The position numbers were made by a program, and so were the translations under genes. Source: a virus (taxonomy: Duplodnaviria > Heunggongvirae > Uroviricota > Caudoviricetes). From it: a stretch of DNA of 33,532 nt. Shown here piece by piece: positions 9-30,187 of this stretch. How positions within the stretch are numbered: position 1 is the stretch's first letter; each line of letters starts with the position of its first letter. The stretch lies in the IMG/VR virus record IMGVR_UViG_648276653_000018, one strand, 5' to 3'. The notes under the pieces are model-generated. The model was not told where the DNA came from. It saw only the letters and a program-made list of their open reading frames with translations, and did no database searches.

Positions 9-902
9 TTAATTGCTTTTATTGATGCTGGAAATGAATAAATAAACTCTAGCTACAAAATTGATATCAGAAAAACCACATTCAAAGCTATTTATGGAGG
101 ATGATACTTTTATCACCTTCTTAGGTAGTCTTGTAATATGCCGAATTGAATAGGTTTCATCGATATTGATGAGCCAGTGTCCATCCAATACATCAGTAAT
201 GTTTTGATCACAAATGTATGTCATCAACCCGTCTTGAATGACAATTGGTGCTGAAAGATTAGCAGGTAAAAATGACGTATCGAAAATATATGAACCACAC
301 TCAACCATTTTTCCTGCATTGAGATGAAATTTAGGCAGCTCTTTTACCAATGTTGTGAGAGAACTGTGCTTGCTGCCTTGCCCAGTGGCTAGCCATAAAA
401 GAGAATTTCCTGTTTCCAACGAGCATTTTATGATCCAATCAGCTGGGAAAGTGTCTCGTAAATATCTGTTTGCCATGGTGCTTTTAGATACATTCAAATG
501 GTCGGCAAGTTCTTGTCTTGTTTTGAAGCCATACGCTTTCATTAGCCGGTCTATTGCATCACGTCCGCCTGAATCCAAATTCAGCAAGTTCCCAATAGGG
601 TTCTCTTGATTATTGATTTGGGGAACATACTGAACCTTTGGTGCAGTTGCCTTTGACATGACCGATGCCTCTGTATTCTGAGGGAATGGTACGCCTTTTC
701 CGAATGAGAGCCATTCGATAGATGCACCCGTTTCAATTGCACACTGAATTACCCAGTCAGCAGGAAATACGTCACGCATCCAGCGCGTACCCATAGTGCT
801 TGCAGATACGTTGAACTGCTCGCATAGAGCTTGCCTTGTCTTGAATCCATACGCCTCAAGCATGCGCGTTATGACTGCTTGTCCTCCGTTTTTGAAATTC
901 AT
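9..902 (-). CDS. CI-like immunity repressor with two tandem Phage_CI_repr-type HTH domains plus a C-terminal domain
   Basis: 297 aa ORF; internal repeat MLEAYGFKTRQALCEQFNVSASTMGTRWMRDVFPADWVIQCAIETGASIEWLSFGKG versus LMKAYGFKTRQELADHLNVSKSTMANRYLRDTFPADWIIKCSLETGNSLLWLATGQG; divergent from the apl/cII early operon. Confidence 0.75.
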   Translation of the reverse strand: MNFKNGGQAVITRMLEAYGFKTRQALCEQFNVSASTMGTRWMRDVFPADWVIQCAIETGASIEWLSFGKGVPFPQNTEASVMSKATAPKVQYVPQINNQENPIGNLLNLDSGGRDAIDRLMKAYGFKTRQELADHLNVSKSTMANRYLRDTFPADWIIKCSLETGNSLLWLATGQGSKHSSLTTLVKELPKFHLNAGKMVECGSYIFDTSFLPANLSAPIVIQDGLMTYICDQNITDVLDGHWLINIDETYSIRHITRLPKKVIKVSSSINSFECGFSDINFVARVYLFISSINKSN

Positions 903-1248: not shown

Positions 1249-1280
1249 TTCCATTTTGGGATACATCAGGGGTGTCGACT

Positions 1281-1790
1281 ATGTTTGATTATCAAGTTTC
1301 CAAACATCCACATTTTGATGAAGCCTGTCGTACATTCGCGCTGCGCCACAACCTGGTGCAACTGGCAGATCGTGCAGGCATGAATGTGCAGATTTTGCGT
1401 AACAAGCTGAACCCAGCTCAACCTCATTTATTAACCGCACCAGACATCTGGTTGCTTACCGATCTGACTGAAGATTCAACGCTGGTAGACGGTTTTCTGG
1501 CACAGATTCATTGTCTGCCATGTGTTCCGATTAATGAGGTGGCAAAAGAGAAATTGCCGCATTACGTCATGAGTGCAACTGCAGAGATCGGGCGTGTTGC
1601 TGCAGGTGCGGTATCTGGCGATGTAAAAACCAGTGCAGGTCGTCGTGATGCTATCAGCAGCATTAACTCTGTAACACGACTGATGGCGCTGGCTGCTGTT
1701 TCATTGCAGGCCCGTTTACAGGCTAACCCGGCGATGGCGAGTGCAGTTGATACCGTGACTGGCCTCGGTGCTTCATTCGGTTTGCTGTGA
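1281..1790 (+). CDS. cII: phage 186-type CII regulatory protein
   Basis: [48 protein letters not shown]...; size (~169 aa) and position after apl match 186 CII family. Confidence 0.75.
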
Positions 1791-2831: not shown

Positions 2832-3685
2832 GCACCATCCTGAAATGGGCGGGTAATAAAACCGCCATTATGTCCGAACTGAAAAAACATCTTCCTGCTG
2901 GCCCGCGACTGGTTGAACCTTTCGCGGGTTCTTGTGCTGTGATGATGGCGACGGATTACCCCAGCTATCTGGTTGCGGATATTAATCCTGATTTAATCAA
3001 CCTCTATAAAAAGGTTTCTGCTGATTGTGAGGCGTTTATATCTCGCGCCAGAGTTTTATTTGAGAACGCAAACAGGGAGGTGGCTTATTACAACATAAAG
3101 CAGGAGTTTAATTACTCAACTGAAATTACTGATTTCATGAAAGCGGTATATTTCCTGTATCTCAATCGTCACGGTTACCGTGGGTTATGTCGCTATAACA
3201 AGAGCGGGCATTTCAACATTCCCTACGGTAATTATAAAAATCCGTATTTCCCTGAAAAAGAAATTCGCGCATTTGCAGAGAAAGCCCAGCGAGCAACGTT
3301 TATCTGCGCCAGCTTTGATGAAACGCTGGCGATGCTGCAGGTGGGGGATGTGGTGTATTGCGATCCGCCTTATGACGGTACGTTTTCCGGTTATCACACT
3401 GACGGCTTCACTGAAGATGACCAGTATCACCTGGCATCCGTTCTTGAACATCGGTCATCAGAAGGACATCCCGTCATTGTTTCTAACAGTGACACATCCC
3501 TGATCCGTTCGCTGTATCGCAATTTTACTCACCACTACATCAAGGCAAAACGCAGCATCGGTGTGGCAGCTGGTGATAGTAAATCTGCAACAGAAATCAT
3601 TGCTGTTTCCGGGGCGCGCTGCTGGGTGGGATTTGATCCTTCGCGTGGCGTAGATAGTTCTGCTGTGTACGAGGTGCGTGTATGA
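2828..3685 (+). CDS. dam: DNA adenine (N6) methyltransferase, Dam-like
   Basis: N-terminal [15 protein letters not shown]...PFAGSCAV (AdoMet-binding) and catalytic DPPY motif ([11 protein letters not shown]). Confidence 0.85.
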
Positions 3686-6094
3686 GTCATGACGATATGA
3701 GCAACTCTAGCGGCTTTAACGAGGCCGCTGCATCATTTTCATGGAACGGCCCGAAAAAGGCCATTAACCCTTATCTGGACCCGGCGGAATTTGCGCCGGA
3801 GTCTGCACTTTCAAACCTGATCACTCTGTATGCTGCCGATAACGAGCAGGAACAACTGCGCCGCGAGGCACTGAGTGAGCAGGTCTGGGAGCGTTATTTC
3901 TTTAATGAATCCCGTGATCCTGTCCAGCGCGAAATGGAGCAGGATAAGCTCATTAGCCGCGCAAAGCTTGCGCATGAGCAGCAGCTTTTTAACCCGGACA
4001 TGGTCATTCTGGCAGATGTCAGCGCCCAGCCTACCCACATCAGCAAGCCGCTGATGCAACGTATCGAATACTTCAGCAGCCTGGGCAGGCCAAAGGCTTA
4101 TTCCCGCTATTTGCGTGAGACGATTAAGCCATGTCTGGAGCGACTGGATTGTGTACGCGACAGTCAGCTATCCGCTTCTTTCCGTTTTATGGCAAGCCAT
4201 CAAGGGCTTGAGGGCCTGCTGATCCTGCCTGAAATGAGTCAGGATCAGGTAAAACGCCTGTCCACCCTGGTAGCTGCGCATATGAGCATGTGCCTTGATG
4301 CCGCTTGTGGCGATTTATATGCCACCGATGACGTTAAGCCAGAAGAAATCCGCAAGACATGGGAAAAGGTGGCAGCGGAAACCCTGCGACTGGATGTTAT
4401 CCCGCCTGCGTTTGAGCAACTCCGCCGGAAAAGAAACCGCCGCAAACCCGTGCCCTATGAACTCATACCGGGTTCGCTGGCACGTATGCTTTGCGCCGAC
4501 TGGTGGTATCGAAAATTGTGGAAGATGCGTTGCGAATGGCGGGAAGAGCAGTTGCGTGCTGTCTGCCTGGTCAGCAAAAAAGCATCTCCCTATGTCAGCT
4601 ATGAAGCCGTGACGCATAAACGTGAGCAGCGCCGTAAGTCGCTGGAGTTTTTCCGTTCTCATGAACTGGTGAACGAAGACGGCGACACGCTGGATATGGA
4701 AGATGTGGTAAACGCCAGCAGCAGCAACCCGGCACATCGCCGCAATGAGATGATGGCCTGTGTTAAAGGTCTGGAGCTTATCGCAGAAATGCGTGGTGAC
4801 TGCGCCGTTTTCTACACTATCACCTGTCCGTCACGTTTCCATTCCACGCTCAACAACGGCAGACCCAACCCGACCTGGACAAATGCGACGGTAAGACAAA
4901 GCAGCGATTATCTGGTCGGCATGTTTGCTGCATTTCGTAAGGCTATGCACAAAGCCGGGTTGCGCTGGTATGGCGTGCGGGTGGCTGAGCCGCACCATGA
5001 CGGTACTGTGCACTGGCATCTCATGTGTTTCATGCGCAAAAAAGACCGCCGCGCCATTACTGCATTGTTGCGTAAGTTTGCCATCCGTGAAGACCGCGAG
5101 GAACTGGGTAATAACACTGGTCCACGCTTTAAATCTGAGCTGATAAACCCACGCAAAGGAACACCGACAAGCTACATCGCGAAATACATCAGTAAGAACA
5201 TTGACGGGCGTGGTCTGGCTGGCGAGATCAGCAAGGAAACGGGTAAATCCCTGCGTGATAATGCTGAATACGTTAATGCTTGGGCGTCTCTGCATCGTGT
5301 TCAGCAATTCCGCTTCTTTGGCATTCCGGGGCGTCAGGCTTACCGTGAACTGCGATTGCTGGCTGGTCAGGCGGCAAGGCAACAGGGGACAAAAAGCAGG
5401 TGCGCCGGTACTGGATAACCCGCGCCTTGATGCCATCCTGGCTGCTGCTGATGCTGGTTGTTTTGCCACCTACATCATGAAGCAGGGCGGCGTACTGGTT
5501 CCCCGCAAATATCACCTTATCAGAACAGCTTATGAAATTAACGAAGAGCCGACTGCTTATGGCGATCACGGTATTCGTATTTATGGCATCTGGTCACCCA
5601 TTGTACAGGGCAAGATTTGCACTCATGCAGTGAAGTGGAAAATGGTTCGTAAGGCCGTTGACGTTCAGGAGGCGGCAGCCGACCAGGGCGCTTGCGCCCC
5701 TTGGACTCGTGGCAATAACTGTCCCCTTGCTGAAAATTTGAACCAACAAGGGAAAGACAAATCAGCTGATGGGGACTCCAGAACGGATATTACCCGTATG
5801 AATGACAAGGAGTTGCACGATTACCTGCACAGTATGAGCAAAAAAGAGCGCCGGGAACTGGCTGCAAGGTTACGCCAGGTGAAACCGAAACGGCGTAAAG
5901 ACTACAAACAGCGAATTACGGACCATCAGCGACAGCAGCTCGTCTATGAACTGAAGTCCAGGGGATTTGATGGCAGCGAGAAAGAAGTCGATTTGCTCCT
6001 TCGCGGCGGCAGTATTCCGTCAGGAGCAGGCCTGCGTATCTTCTATCGGAACCAGCGTCTGAAGGAAGATGATAAGTGGCGGAACCTGTATTAA
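3682..6094 (+). pseudogene. A: replication initiation protein A (rolling-circle nickase), split by a 1-nt frameshift in an A5 run at 5391-5395; fragments 3682-5418 and ~5387-6094
   Basis: Two overlapping same-strand ORFs (578 aa and 297 aa) whose junction lies at acAAAAAgcagg; combined length ~800 aa fits the P2/186 gene A size and position. Could equally be a sequencing error. Confidence 0.6.
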
Positions 6095-6163: not shown

Positions 6164-6204
6164 TTTACATCAGTAAGATTATTATATACTGTAAATATAA
6201 ACAG
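6164..6204 (+). promoter_or_regulatory. SOS promoter with LexA box CTGTAAATATAAACAG (6189-6204) overlapping a -10-like TATACT; -35-like TTTACA at 6164-6169
   Basis: Perfect CTGT-N8-ACAG palindrome with AT-rich spacer, flanked by ta/tg; upstream of the DinI/Tum-like gene. Confidence 0.7.
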
Positions 6205-6680: not shown

Positions 6681-6872
6681 GAAATGTTGCCCCCAGGAGG
6701 ATTCATTCTGATGGGGGCTAGTTTGGGCAATGAGTGAAATAAGGCGTAAGGTGGGCGGTTATTTTGATAAGTGATCGTCCGCTTTGTGTCAGAAGCAGAA
6801 GTGGGAGTGTCTGAGACTCTCTAAAAGTTGATGATTCACTTACAAAACCATTTTCCTGATGGATGCTTACAC

Positions 6873-7208
6873 TTACGAATGATCATTCTGTTTAGTCTTC
6901 ATGAGAAAATCCCGAATCTTTGCCAAGTTTGAATTTTCGGGGATTGAATCCATGTACGGATCACGCTCAAACACTAATTGCTCAGATTCAACGAAAGCCT
7001 GCCACTCTAATGGGTCTAGCTCAAATCCCATTGCTGTCATATCACTTTCATCTTCCCCCTCGATCCAGTGGACTAAATAAAACAATTCATCATCAGGAGA
7101 ATCATCCTCACCATCAACAATATCAACATCGGTTACAGTGATACGTAGGGTGGGATCGATTTTTGAGACATAAATTCCTAACTGTGGTATAGGGGGAATA
7201 TTGTTCAT
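6873..7208 (-). CDS. hypothetical strongly acidic small protein (cargo gene in variable region)
   Basis: 111 aa ORF with AGGAG RBS 7 nt upstream of ATG; rich in D/E (e.g. DVDIVDGEDDSPDDELF, EGEDESD); no recognisable catalytic motif. Confidence 0.6.
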   Translation of the reverse strand: MNNIPPIPQLGIYVSKIDPTLRITVTDVDIVDGEDDSPDDELFYLVHWIEGEDESDMTAMGFELDPLEWQAFVESEQLVFERDPYMDSIPENSNLAKIRDFLMKTKQNDHS

Positions 7209-7520
7209 GGAAACTCCTTTTATTGGTGTTTGCTATTTGAATAAAAATACGCCAAACAGAGTGTTAACTGTGAATATGGAAAGAATCGTTGTAAGTACCC
7301 CGCTTAGGTGTCCCATTCTATTTTAGAGGTTCTCGTGCATATGGATTATGTTATCTGAAAGTTAACTTCCGCTTCCCGTTCACAGCGAACATTCATCTTT
7401 GTAAACCCGTATGATCCGTTTTTCAAGTGGCCATTCAGATACGGATTTTCACTTCCTTGACAGTGCATGACTATGCTGCATGAAATCGCATGATCGATTG
7501 AGGATCGTCTTTGCTCAGAT

Positions 7521-7546
7521 CCGCCAGAACTGGCGGGCTTTTGCTC
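7521..7546 (+). terminator. Rho-independent terminator-like hairpin (CCGCCA-GAAC-TGGCGG followed by GCTTTTG)
   Basis: Perfect 6-bp GC-rich stem, 4-nt loop, T-rich tail on the plus strand. Confidence 0.5.
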
Positions 7547-7587
7547 ATGTCATGCATGTGCATGAAAACCACTGCATAAAGCGGGCA

Positions 7588-7606
7588 GGCGTGGCGGGGA
7601 TACGAG
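7588..7606. other. candidate cos (cohesive-end) site: GGCGTGGCGGGGATACGAG
   Basis: First 13 nt identical to my recollection of the 186 cos 5' end (GGCGTGGCGGGGAAAGCAT; P2: GGCGAGGCGGGGAAAGCAC); lies between the A and Q genes where cos is expected. Confidence 0.35.
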
Positions 7607-7736
7607 CGCGCGCTAACTCTTGGCTTTGTTTCATAATCAAAAATGTGATCATTGAGATTATTCTTAAATTTGTGTTTGTCTATGAAATATCATTTCGCTT
7701 AACATTGTTTGAGTTAGGACTACATGAGAATAAAGA

Positions 7737-8312
7737 ATGCTTTTACCCGTAAGTATTACATCGTGTGGCTTGTATCACCCCTACTGGCATTTGGGAGAGC
7801 GCAACCCTCATAGCGATGAACTATCAAGGCAGATGATGGATTTTAAGGATGAAAATAATCGTAATCATCAAAGGGCCATTAACCGTTTTTCTCGATTAGC
7901 TATAGATAAGGTTGGGCGGTTAGTAATCAGAGGTGGCGGTGGGCGTTTTGTTGAGTCTCCTTTTTCGATAGCAGTTGTCCCGTCTCACACTGAAGGCAGA
8001 ATTTCACCGGCTTTGATTGAGGTCGCCGAGCGAATCGTAAATGTTCACCGTCGGGGCATTGTTGATTGCTGTTTGGAAAGAACACGCACTGTTCCTAGCG
8101 CACATCGTGAAGGTGGAGATCGCTCAATTACTGGTCACATGTCTAGTATCAGAGTTAGGGGTGGTAACCTCATGGGGCGAAATGTGTTACTACTAGATGA
8201 TGTTAAAACAACAGGCGGTAGTTTGTCTGCGTGTTTTTATTTACTGGAGTCTGCAGGAGCTGGAGTTATAATGCCATTAGCTCTGCTAGAAACTGCAAAC
8301 TATGAGGAGTAG
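7737..8312 (+). CDS. phosphoribosyltransferase (type I PRTase)-domain protein; candidate toxin/effector of a two-gene defence cassette
   Basis: PRPP-binding loop motif VLLLDDVKTTGGSL near C-terminal third; AT-rich codon usage unlike phage core; start ambiguous (ATG 7737 or ATG 7833). Confidence 0.7.
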   Translation: MLLPVSITSCGLYHPYWHLGERNPHSDELSRQMMDFKDENNRNHQRAINRFSRLAIDKVGRLVIRGGGGRFVESPFSIAVVPSHTEGRISPALIEVAERIVNVHRRGIVDCCLERTRTVPSAHREGGDRSITGHMSSIRVRGGNLMGRNVLLLDDVKTTGGSLSACFYLLESAGAGVIMPLALLETANYEE

Positions 8313-9300: not shown

Positions 9301-10329
9301 CTAAATTTGATATCTCTCGAATTTTATAATTTCTTCACCGCTCCAATGATTAAATTCTTTCATTCTTTTTTGTAATGGTAATAATTCATTTTTCACAAAT
9401 ACCTTACTAGCTTTTTCTACATCCCCAAATCCCCCAACATTATTAGGCATTATCCCCATCATTTGTGGCGGCACACGATGCGCTGCCATCATGTCATCCC
9501 GACTCACGTTCTTGATGTTAAGAAATTCATCCTTCGCCGCGACTTCTGACAACGGGATGATCTGAAGCCCGTCCTTTTTGCCGTTAGGCGAGTACATAAA
9601 CAGGTTGCGGAAGTTGCCAGGGCCTTTGGCGCTTTTCATCGCATTGCGGAGGTTGTTCACATCCTCCTGGTTCTGCGCGGCATCGGTCATGTACATGATG
9701 AAGCCTGCATGACTGCCGTTAATGTAATACTTCCGGCGGAACAGCGTGGCGGACTCGTTGAGCAGGGCTGACGGAATGGCAGAAAGATAACCTGGCAGGC
9801 CGTAGATCTCCTGGTTGATGTCCGGTTCCATCAGATGAAAAATGCTGCCTTTCGTGAACTGATACGGCTGGGTTGTCATACCGTATTGCACAAACCAGTA
9901 GGTATCCAGGTCTAACCCGCGTCGGGTGTATTTTGCCAGAGCAGGCTCAAGGGCGATAACTTCACCGAAGCGGTTCGTGCGTTTCTCCAGGTAGGCGTTA
10001 CCAAATACCAGATAGTCCTGCACAAAACGTGAAAAAGCCTGCTGGCTGAGCAGCGGGTGAGGGATGTAGGTACTGGTCAGAATATTGCATTTCACCGCAA
10101 TCGGTGAGCTGTGATGCACGGCGGCGCGAAAGGTGCGCGCCAGCCCGTCAAAACTCACTGGCGGCTCATACCATCGATCTGTCTGTACGCATTCCACATA
10201 GTCCAGCAGTTCACGGCGGTCCAGAACAGGAACGGGATCGCCGAAGCTGAATGCTTCGGCTGAACTCTGGCTTTTATGCTGGATCTGATTCATCGCCGCT
10301 ACGCGGTTTTTTTTACTCTTTCCCATCAA
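9301..10329 (-). CDS. Q: portal protein (P2 gpQ-like)
   Basis: 342 aa ORF, minus strand, directly upstream of the terminase ATPase gene as in P2; size matches gpQ. Confidence 0.85.
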   Translation of the reverse strand: MMGKSKKNRVAAMNQIQHKSQSSAEAFSFGDPVPVLDRRELLDYVECVQTDRWYEPPVSFDGLARTFRAAVHHSSPIAVKCNILTSTYIPHPLLSQQAFSRFVQDYLVFGNAYLEKRTNRFGEVIALEPALAKYTRRGLDLDTYWFVQYGMTTQPYQFTKGSIFHLMEPDINQEIYGLPGYLSAIPSALLNESATLFRRKYYINGSHAGFIMYMTDAAQNQEDVNNLRNAMKSAKGPGNFRNLFMYSPNGKKDGLQIIPLSEVAAKDEFLNIKNVSRDDMMAAHRVPPQMMGIMPNNVGGFGDVEKASKVFVKNELLPLQKRMKEFNHWSGEEIIKFERYQI

Positions 10330-12092
10330 AAAATCTCCACAATATTGCTGGTATTGGCGGATTCGCCCTGCAGCGGTTCGTTAAACAATGCGTGCATCGT
10401 TGCCCAGGCCAGATCGGCGTGGCTGGCTTCTTCGCTGCGGCTGGCTTCATAGGTCGGGCGGTTGCCGCTGGCGGTGGTGGCGCGACGGATTGCCATAAAG
10501 GACTGCGCTATGTCGGTGTGCCCGGCGTCAAACTCCAGGCGGCGGTGGCTAATAATGTCGTAGGCCTTGAGTACCAGGGCGTTTTTAACGTTGGGGTTGT
10601 AGACAAACTCCCGGACGGCAGGAAAAAACGCTTTCACGTTCTCGTAAACCCCGTGACCGACGCCGGTTGAGTCGATACCGATGTATGTTACGTTGTACTG
10701 TTCAGTCAGTTTTTTGATGGCGTCAGCCTGGGCGCGGAAGTCCATCCCGCGCCACTGGTGACGCTCAAGAATGCGGAACTTACCGCCCGGCACGGCTGGC
10801 GGTGCCACCACCACGCACCCGGCGCTGTCGCCGTTTTGCGTACCTTTTGCCGGGTCATAACCGATCCACACTTCGCGCCAGCCAAACGGGCGCAGGGCCA
10901 GTGCATGAAAGTCGCTCCAGACTTCCCAACTGTCCACCATGCACGCCTGCAGCTCGCTGAGCGGGAACACGGACGCGAGATCGTCCACAAACTCGCACAT
11001 CAGCAGGTTCTGGTATTCGTCCGGGCTGTACTCCATGCGCAACTGATCGAGGTCGAAAAGGTTACATCCGCCGCGCACTGCATCTTCCACGGTGACTATC
11101 TGGCGGTATTGCCCGTCTGCGCACAGCAGGCCGGGGGCCAGATTGCTGTGGGACAGGTCGATGTCCACCTTATCGGCTTTGTTACGCCCACGGTTGAACA
11201 GCGCACCAGACCAGAACGGATAAGCACTGTGTGTCAGGCTGGATGGCGTGGAAAAATAGGTTTGTCGCCATTTTTTGTGAATAGCCATACCGGAAGCCAC
11301 TTTGCGCAGCTCCTGGAATTTCGGTATCCAGAAATATTCATCCAGATACAGGTTGCCGTGGTAACTCTGGGCCGTGCGGGCATTGGTGCCGAGGAAGTAA
11401 AGCGTGGCCCCGTTGGGAAGCACCATCGGATCGCCTTTCAGCTCCACCTCCACTTCTTTGGCGAAGTCGATGATGTACTGTTTAAAGACGTGGGCCTGTG
11501 CCTTACTGGCGGAAAGGAAAATCTGGTTACGTCCGGTAAGCAGGGCGTCAATCAGGGCTTCACGGGCAAAGTAAAAGGTCGCGCCGATCTGGCGTGACTT
11601 CAGCAGGTTGCGGATGCGGTTGGTTTTTCCGGCTTCCCACCAGTGGCGCTGGTAGTTGAACATGGAGGAATGGAAGATTTCTTCCAGCTTCTCAATCTGC
11701 TCATCGGTGAAAACATTCTTTTCCGGCTGACGGCGCGGGCCTTTGTTGCGGTTGGCGACGTTAGGGTTTAAGTCGGCTTCGTTGCCGCCATTGTTAAACT
11801 TGCCGATCCGCGCGTGGCGTTCCGACTGGCGCGCCAGCAGGTCAATCTCTTTGAAATCTTTCCCTTCTTTGTGCTCCTTCATAATGAGCTGGCAGTAGCG
11901 TGCGGCGGTGGTGAGCTGCATCTGATCCAGCGGCCCATAGTCACCCCACTTGTCGCGTTTCTTCCAGCTGTGAACGGTTGCAACTTTCTCGCCCAGCATT
12001 TCAGCAATGCGGGCTACACGGTATCCCTGAAAGTACAGCAGCATGGCCTGCCGACGGGGATCGAGATCTGCGGGTGTCAGTGTGGTGTTCAT
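10326..12092 (-). CDS. P: terminase large (ATPase) subunit (P2 gpP-like)
   Basis: 588 aa ORF overlapping Q by 4 nt; size and position match P2 gpP. Confidence 0.85.
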   Translation of the reverse strand: MNTTLTPADLDPRRQAMLLYFQGYRVARIAEMLGEKVATVHSWKKRDKWGDYGPLDQMQLTTAARYCQLIMKEHKEGKDFKEIDLLARQSERHARIGKFNNGGNEADLNPNVANRNKGPRRQPEKNVFTDEQIEKLEEIFHSSMFNYQRHWWEAGKTNRIRNLLKSRQIGATFYFAREALIDALLTGRNQIFLSASKAQAHVFKQYIIDFAKEVEVELKGDPMVLPNGATLYFLGTNARTAQSYHGNLYLDEYFWIPKFQELRKVASGMAIHKKWRQTYFSTPSSLTHSAYPFWSGALFNRGRNKADKVDIDLSHSNLAPGLLCADGQYRQIVTVEDAVRGGCNLFDLDQLRMEYSPDEYQNLLMCEFVDDLASVFPLSELQACMVDSWEVWSDFHALALRPFGWREVWIGYDPAKGTQNGDSAGCVVVAPPAVPGGKFRILERHQWRGMDFRAQADAIKKLTEQYNVTYIGIDSTGVGHGVYENVKAFFPAVREFVYNPNVKNALVLKAYDIISHRRLEFDAGHTDIAQSFMAIRRATTASGNRPTYEASRSEEASHADLAWATMHALFNEPLQGESANTSNIVEIF

Positions 12093-29952: not shown

Positions 29953-30039
29953 CGCTGCCGCCATTTTGTCGCCATCGTTAAAAAACAGTGCTTCTAACAT
30001 CATGATTTTAAACAGCTTAAATTTCAGGCAACAAAAAAC

Positions 30040-30075
30040 CCATCAACCTTGAACCGAAATGGCGGGGTTGATGGG
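30040..30075 (+). terminator. hairpin CCCATCAACC-N16-GGTTGATGGG downstream of ogr, at or near the prophage/chromosome junction
   Basis: 10-bp perfect inverted repeat preceded by an A-run; no clear T tail on plus strand, so may act for the minus strand or be part of the att region. Confidence 0.35.
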
Positions 30076-30187
30076 CTCCACAAAATGGGGACATCAAAGA
30101 AAAGCAGTGGCACTAATTAAGACTGATGCCCTGCGGAAAAGTTCTGCGGTTGTGCAAAAAAATTTCATTTTCAGGGCAACTTCAGTT

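Follow-up and report, generated by a model that had tools for sequence, protein, structure and literature searches.

An acidic DUF8087 gene beside cos in a 186-type P2-like prophage is carried on a mobile cassette and assorts independently of the ShosTA genes across cos

Background

Ocr of T7, ArdA, and Arn of T4 are small, extremely acidic proteins that are encoded by mobile elements and that occupy DNA-binding sites. CarS of Myxococcus is a small acidic antirepressor with an SH3-like fold, a DNA mimic that sequesters the DNA-recognition surface of a repressor. The subject of the present analysis is the product of an open reading frame (ORF) in a P2-like prophage, a member of the family DUF8087, which shares with Ocr, ArdA, and Arn its small size, its extreme acidity, and its coding by a mobile element, and which is also, like CarS with its SH3-like beta fold, a small acidic protein. 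However, the predicted model of the DUF8087 protein, in which acidic loops that appear flexible surround a compact beta core, does not suggest the rigid, DNA-shaped array of charge that characterizes Ocr, ArdA, and Arn. By the features examined, the protein is a member neither of a known DNA-mimic family nor of ShosTA, the system encoded nearby; it may work like an acidic decoy.

The gene lies within the gpA-gpQ interval that forms the cos-proximal hotspot of P2 and P4 (Rousset et al. 2022, PMC9122126). It differs from the hotspot cargo described there in that it occupies a separate slot, on the right-end side of cos, and in that it falls outside the validated DprA + PRTase system. The gene was neither tested nor singled out in that study, in whose Table S5A the RefSeq protein WP_001059831 appears as a 'hypothetical' gene amid varied cargo (Rousset et al. 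2022, PMC9122126). In phage 186 and Fels-2 the same slot, between the DinI-like gene tum and cos, is instead filled by 186 orf97 or Fels-2 STM2726. These genes of the opposite strand belong to the SOS operon and encode unrelated proteins of 243 aa, whereas the DUF8087 gene is inverted and has its own flanks. (The annotation in the phage 186 record states of orf97 that 'expression from plasmid blocks 186 infection'.) A literature search found no paper on DUF8087, PF26332, or WP_001059831.1, and no characterized member of the family.

The prophage and its cos site

The window (the whole stretch of 33,532 nucleotides that was analyzed) is a P2-like prophage of the 186/Fels-2 type, whose landmarks are collected in Table 1 together with the features of the acidic gene and its surroundings. 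The host small RNA RybB, on the minus strand, indicates that host chromosome follows the prophage on its right.

Table 1. Features of the window; positions are those of the whole stretch
Feature	Position	Strand	Remarks
CI repressor	9-902	-	prophage landmark
CII	1272-1790		prophage landmark
gpA replication gene	3682-6094		prophage landmark
DinI/Tum-like gene	6375/6447-6680		Pfam DinI, E=1.2e-22
Variable tum-cos slot	6691-7461	.	771-bp module, polymorphic among prophages
Mobile cassette block	6837-7371	-	~535 bp; 85-88% nucleotide identity with copies elsewhere
Integrase 5' relic	6837-6872	-	~10 codons, KHPSGKWFCK, P2-type
DUF8087 CDS (PF26332 / phrog_17127)	6873-7208	-	111 aa, pI 4.05, net charge -19
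Shine-Dalgarno AAAGGAG	7214-7220	-	5 nt (TTTCC) upstream of ATG
Hydrophobic 27-codon ORF	7233-7316	-	MGHLSGVLTTILSIFTVNTLFGVFLFK; last codons align with the Flk_N-like membrane tail
Conserved cos block	7462-7613	+	cut 7587/7588; cohesive end 7588-7606
Portal	9301-10329		prophage landmark
Terminase	10326-12092		prophage landmark
RybB host sRNA	30030-30108	-	Rfam RF00110, 105 bits

When the window is aligned to the phage 186 ends, the cos cut falls between positions 7587 and 7588, with a cohesive end of 19 nt (GGCGTGGCGGGGATACGAG, 7588-7606). Around the cut, phage 186 reads ...cataaagtgggca to the left and ggcgtggcggggaaagcat to the right; the corresponding sequences in the window are ...cataaagcgggca and ggcgtggcggggatacgag. 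The site sits within an apparently 'intergenic' stretch between the acidic ORF and ShosT, and was missed in an earlier note on this DNA, which had been made from the sequence alone. Homology with prophages that carry other cargo stops at ~7613-7615, about 8 bp past the cohesive end. Given this position of cos, the mature phage genome has the acidic gene at its extreme right and ShosTA at its extreme left.

Other observations concern the remainder of the prophage. A perfect LexA box (CTGTAAATATAAACAG) at 6189-6204 precedes the DinI/Tum-like gene and an ORF of 62 aa, an arrangement that agrees with the SOS-controlled p95-tum operon of phage 186. When compared with the intact 2415-nt gene of E2348/69, gpA is split by a 2-nt deletion near 5386 into overlapping ORFs (3682-5418 and 5201-6094); this may reflect a sequencing error or a defect of the prophage in replication. 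Identity to E2348/69 is only ~96% in the early region, and exceeds 99% in the region that spans DUF8087, cos, and ShosTA. The CI ORF encodes 297 aa with two tandem CI helix-turn-helix N-terminal domains; CI of the BL21 prophage has 189 aa and a single copy of this domain.

The acidic gene and the DUF8087 family

The earlier note had described a minus-strand ORF for 111 aa with two acidic runs. This ORF, which begins with ATG, is present as claimed, and the runs DGEDDSPDDE and EGEDESD correspond to residues 32-41 and 50-56 of its product. Its placement between the DinI/Tum-like gene and the PRTase/DprA pair, divergent from that pair, was likewise borne out, as was the strong acidity of the product once pI and net charge were calculated (Table 1). 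The protein has 26 D+E residues as compared to 7 K+R, and its acidity per residue is twice that of any other gene-sized ORF in the window. Of the ribosome-binding site that had been proposed, the AAAGGAG motif and its near-ideal quality stand, but the spacer is 5 nt rather than 7; this length is still near-optimal, and AAAGGA is kept in most copies of the cassette that carries the gene (see below). No enzyme, signal-peptide, or membrane features were found in the protein.

Scans with Pfam, NCBIfam, and PADLOC returned no match for the ORF, the Pfam release used being older than PF26332. Assignment to the family comes from a match to phrog_17127 (E=6.6e-70) that covers residues 1-111 of 111, and from PF26332 itself, which is precomputed for the cluster of a 99%-identical protein; the ORF product is a full-length member. 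The exact protein is already in RefSeq and is carried by BL21, REL606, and E2348/69. A single residue, L67V, separates the ORF product from WP_001059831.1 (E2348/69, BL21), which newer PGAP annotation names 'DUF8087 domain-containing protein'. A search of 5.8 billion proteins yielded 61 homologous clusters, all of them from Enterobacterales, all with PF26332, and nearly all 108-111 aa in length. Remote members of 70-106 aa, among them one from Pantoea and one from Nitrosospira, came to light in an exhaustive profile search, and these have in common the core P-x2-G-x-Y-V-S ... FYLV ... D-M-x-A-x3-E-L-D-x2-E-W. In the family alignments, in which this core motif is retained, P8 and G11 are invariant, and residues Y13, S15, V25, V28, L45, V46, D56, E63, W69, and L78 are at least 90% conserved.

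In unsaturated comparisons, dN/dS for DUF8087 is 0.16-0.22, indicative of purifying selection, and a value of ~0.2 is obtained between cassette copies from different contexts. Every member examined is acidic (charge -8 to -22, pI 4.05-4.5), which argues that the charge is a selected trait. Since the homologues have the same length as the ORF, it is no fragment of a larger gene; that it might prove to be one was what the earlier note had named as speaking against it. The overlapping ORFs on the plus strand were also considered as the true gene and rejected, because codon-level selection favors the minus frame. Taken together, these comparisons confirm, at the level of sequence, that the acidic ORF is a real, conserved gene, and its product is an uncharacterized small acidic accessory protein of mobile elements. 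The gene is nevertheless rare, as judged from a tblastn search of 50,697 deposited phage genomes in which no match to it was found.

Two cargo slots around cos

The PRTase/DprA pair at 7737-9276 matches the PADLOC models for ShosT (E=3.7e-14) and ShosA (E=2.8e-70), while the acidic protein matches none of the PADLOC models. This pair corresponds to the 'DprA + PRTase' system whose action against T7 and lambda has been validated (Rousset et al. 2022, PMC9122126). (The ShosT-like PRTase gene, at 7737-8312, encodes 191 aa and overlaps the start of shosA by 11 nt. It is unannotated in RefSeq for E2348/69 and other strains, in which only a 'DNA-processing protein DprA' is called.)

Among E. coli prophages the cargo to the right of cos varies, being ShosTA in E2348/69, retron Ec67, an AAA ATPase with SIR2, or retron Ec86 in BL21, and an identical acidic gene is found across cos from each of these. 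The slot to the left of cos carries DUF8087 in ~131 of 1312 flank-matching E. coli records, or about 1 in 10; in phage 500465-1 it is reduced to only ~68 bp. ShosTA adjoins only 9 of the ~131 gene copies in the P2 context. The ShosTA allele of the window is present in 22 genomes, with the acidic gene in nine of them and without it in 13; one of these 13 has a KAP-type P-loop NTPase in the slot, and another has other hypothetical genes. The gpA-gpQ hotspot, inside which cos lies, thus comprises two slots that assort independently, one on each side of cos.

The gene has the attributes of a moron: it is situated between gpA and gpQ beside cos, its presence is polymorphic, and its base composition is atypical (40% GC, as compared to 52% for the window). 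Its presence or absence among collinear prophages, its low GC content, and its recurrence in unrelated mobile elements uphold one of the possibilities raised in the earlier note, that of an independent accessory gene.

Origin of the cassette

Copies of the gene outside the intact operon described below, that of the window included, lie in a shared block that extends from ~160-190 nt upstream of the ATG, where the left edge of the cassette is sharp, to 100-220 nt downstream of the stop codon. Its homes include a CP4-like island in Morganella, the ychF island of E. coli, and a P4-like ssrA island; further loci in Serratia, Symbiopectobacterium, Lonsdalea, and Proteus come from a related-loci search with a narrow alignment, which returned four species only. 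The ychF-adjacent island, in which 81 E. coli genomes have a 90%-identical allele, also encodes a NACHT protein, an AAA ATPase, and a DEAD helicase of 1589 aa. The Morganella copy adjoins a gene for a protein with helicase and PLD domains, whose Pfam domains suggest that it is Mokosh type II-like. The ORF is intact in all 213 of the E. coli genomes that carry it. (In the P4-like ssrA island, L023 8001-8459, a 1-nt deletion frameshifts DUF8087, and the 152-aa protein P0040 called there is an artefact.)

P2-like prophages of Klebsiella and Enterobacter contain an intact operon with the order HTH repressor, Flk_N-like gene, DUF8087, integrase. This is a tight lysogeny operon, with gaps of 10-11 nt between its genes and a 4-nt overlap of DUF8087 with int; the Flk_N-domain protein has 211-215 aa and a hydrophobic C-terminal tail. 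Both neighbors of DUF8087 have left traces in the cassette. The integrase relic in the window is short (Table 1), whereas in other copies of the cassette 28-62 codons for the N-terminus of the integrase remain (tblastn E 1e-8 to 5e-17). Upstream of the gene, the hydrophobic 27-codon ORF is probably what is left of the C-terminal membrane anchor of the Flk_N-like protein. This call comes from nucleotide alignment and inspection of the reading frame; tblastn did not detect a Flk_N relic. It is also possible that the 27-codon ORF encodes a small membrane peptide. It travels with the cassette in eight contexts, under relaxed constraint (pN/pS 0.53), and its ATG is missing in two of the eight. The stumps of the Flk_N-like and integrase genes mark the cassette as a redistributed excerpt of a P2-type lysogeny operon, and this excerpt has reached islands, satellites, and ICE-like elements. 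Its insertion in the window is inverted.

The slot before int is itself variable. In phage 520873 the Flk_N-like gene is followed by a different small ORF (L039 3105-3527), which lies between the Flk_N-like gene and int and whose product is signal-peptide-like at its N-terminus. The P2-like lineage to which phage 520873 belongs would thus seem to have a cargo slot within its lysogeny operon. The remote members of DUF8087 also adjoin integrases, and are divergent from AlpA/HTH_17-GPA replication operons in small integrative elements. Such elements (L032 1-8961 and L015) have a P4-type integrase, an AlpA/HTH_17 regulator, and a 645-aa GPA replication protein, and are possibly satellite-like carriers of defence genes. 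One small integrative element with DUF8087 also carries a BglII-type R-M system, and the OLD-TOPRIM ATPase and UvrD helicase of this element may be read, from their domains, as a GajA/GajB-like pair.

Expression signals

A consensus scan found no minus-strand sigma-70 promoter within 400 nt, and upstream conservation likewise shows none that is convincing; by eye only, a weak TTGAAA-N17-TACAAA can be seen at ~7425-7397. Some 165 nt of conserved sequence upstream of the gene moves with it, and the ancestral promoter, that of the repressor, was left behind by the cassette. A search for LexA boxes gave a one-mismatch site at 7268-7283, which is no better than chance (17 sites found versus 12 expected), and a scan with Rfam found no RNA family in the module. 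By analogy with the ancestral repressor-integrase operon, expression of DUF8087 in the lysogen, rather than early in the lytic cycle, is suggested.

Predicted structure

With an alignment of 64 sequences, AlphaFold2 gives a model with a mean pLDDT of 84.5 and a pTM of 0.70. The predicted strands (residues 11-15, 22-31, 43-50, 61-64, and 78-82) make up a five-stranded beta core, which is accompanied by two helices (66-76 and 94-109) and a third, shorter one (84-87). The same topology was seen in an earlier model, for which 33 sequences had been aligned (pLDDT 73.8). The acidic loop at residues 32-42 is the least confident part of the core (pLDDT ~61), and it is this loop, the longest acidic run, that varies in length from 0 to 12 residues across the family. 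Foldseek comparison of the earlier model with PDB and BFVD found nothing significant, a profile search against PDB sequences gave no matches at E<=10, and neither fold nor sequence revealed a likeness to Ocr, ArdA, Arn, or other known mimics.

Possible functions

The reading preferred here, and held with moderate confidence, is that of a functional and self-contained DUF8087 moron, located in the right-end slot, unlinked to ShosTA, excerpted from a lysogeny operon, and encoding an acidic, protein-binding inhibitor. Comparison of the loci shows a gene that is, on the evidence of its DNA, autonomous, mobile, located in the tum-cos slot, derived from a lysogeny operon, and independent of ShosTA. 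The cassette arrived as an excerpt of ~0.5 kb from the lysogeny operon of another P2-like lineage and occupies the slot between the SOS-controlled tum/dinI-like gene and cos, with ShosTA in the separate slot across cos. Its ancestral operon suggests that the protein would be produced in the lysogen. The product is expected to be soluble and cytoplasmic, and to consist of the five-stranded beta core and two helices, with a pair of acidic loops at one end. It would most likely act without catalysis, by stoichiometric binding, and thereby block the positively charged surface of a nucleic-acid-binding protein, with contacts made through the conserved negative charge and a conserved ELDPxEW face. 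The target could be a host defence or DNA-binding protein, which would make the protein an anti-defence factor, or a protein of a competing phage, in which case the outcome would be exclusion. It should be noted that charge alone may not define the function, because the longest acidic run belongs to a loop that differs in length among family members and is predicted with low confidence. Counted against the preferred reading are the lack of a clear promoter, the lack of similarity to characterized inhibitors, the frameshifted copy in L023, and the rarity of the gene. A bolder and more tentative proposal, held to be unlikely, is that DUF8087 represents a new family of nucleic-acid-mimicking or charge-decoy inhibitors, with anti-defence or antirepressor activity, that would spread as a minimal cassette of ~0.5 kb among P2-like phages and their satellites, genomic islands, and ICEs.

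An anti-restriction or anti-defence DNA mimic of the Ocr/ArdA/Arn type would guard the incoming or induced phage genome by occupying the DNA site of a nuclease or sensor. The net charge and pI of the protein, together with the acidity of the whole family, are consistent with such a role, as is the distribution of the gene over phages, satellites, islands, and ICE-like elements, which resembles that of anti-restriction genes. In addition, one copy lies 4 kb from an Antirestrict (KlcA/ArdB) gene, and in the window the gene is ~380 bp from the right cohesive end and reads inward. Nevertheless, a DNA mimic of this kind is judged unlikely: the predicted fold is unlike that of any known mimic, the longest acidic run is a low-confidence loop of 0-12 residues, and an origin in a repressor-integrase operon favors production in the lysogen over production early in the lytic cycle.

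It is rather unlikely that the protein serves in superinfection exclusion or defence, acting in the lysogen against a protein of a competing phage as do P2 Tin and 186 Orf97, which come from the same region. The slot itself invites the comparison, as it houses orf97, with its record of blocking 186 infection, and in other prophages a KAP NTPase, and the ancestral place of the gene in a repressor operon would fit as well. The gpA-gpQ hotspot is, moreover, rich in anti-phage systems (Rousset et al. 2022, PMC9122126). However, the protein has no match in PADLOC, and a lone acidic protein of 111 aa without an effector domain is atypical of a defence system.

Translational coupling to int in the intact operon, through the 4-nt overlap, and the position of remote members beside integrases and divergent from AlpA/HTH_17-GPA operons raise another possibility, namely that the protein modulates the lysogeny of its own element, through the integrase, the repressor, or an AlpA-type regulator, or that it is an antirepressor-like decoy. 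CarS, an acidic SH3-like DNA-mimic antirepressor, provides a precedent. This is nonetheless considered improbable, given the purifying selection on cassette copies that lie beside a mere integrase stump in unrelated contexts, and given that a different small gene precedes int in phage 520873.

The gene could also be a silent, hitch-hiking relic that is no longer expressed in the prophage of the window, for stumps of genes flank it, a clear promoter could not be found, a copy elsewhere (L023) is frameshifted, and gpA of the prophage itself is frameshifted. The intact ORF in 213 of 213 carrier E. coli genomes, the dN/dS of ~0.2 between cassette copies, and the conservation of a strong ribosome-binding site make this distinctly improbable. 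Even less can be said for an orphan immunity protein or antidote to the Flk_N-like, tail-anchored membrane protein, kept elsewhere as an anti-addiction gene. The proximity of the two genes in the intact operon, in which DUF8087 begins 11 nt after the Flk_N-like gene, and the retention in cassettes of a 3' stump of the latter, as in orphan toxin-tip/immunity modules, recommend it. This explanation is very improbable, as phage 520873 has a Flk_N-like gene without DUF8087, so that co-occurrence is not obligate, nothing points to toxicity of the Flk_N-like protein, and cassette copies and remote members are found without an intact Flk_N-like neighbor. Finally, an immunity, regulatory, or sensor partner of the adjacent ShosTA, which the earlier note had proposed and for which only proximity and divergent orientation speak, is scarcely credible and is rejected, because the gene and ShosTA assort independently by the counts given above, with cos between them, DUF8087 occurs in many loci without ShosTA, the protein matches no PADLOC model, and ShosA is already recognized as the DprA-like antitoxin of the system (PADLOC; Rousset et al. 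2022, PMC9122126).

Implications

DUF8087 is thus a candidate for an uncharacterized family of conflict proteins within the well-studied cos-proximal defence hotspot of P2, and it is carried by tractable strains (BL21, REL606, and E2348/69). The presence of two independent slots around cos means that nearness to a defence system does not prove membership in it, and this two-slot anatomy is a warning to automated annotation that assigns genes to defence or anti-defence through 'guilt by association'. The cassette with its flanking stumps, for its part, records the excision of a moron from a lysogeny operon and its redistribution among different mobile elements.
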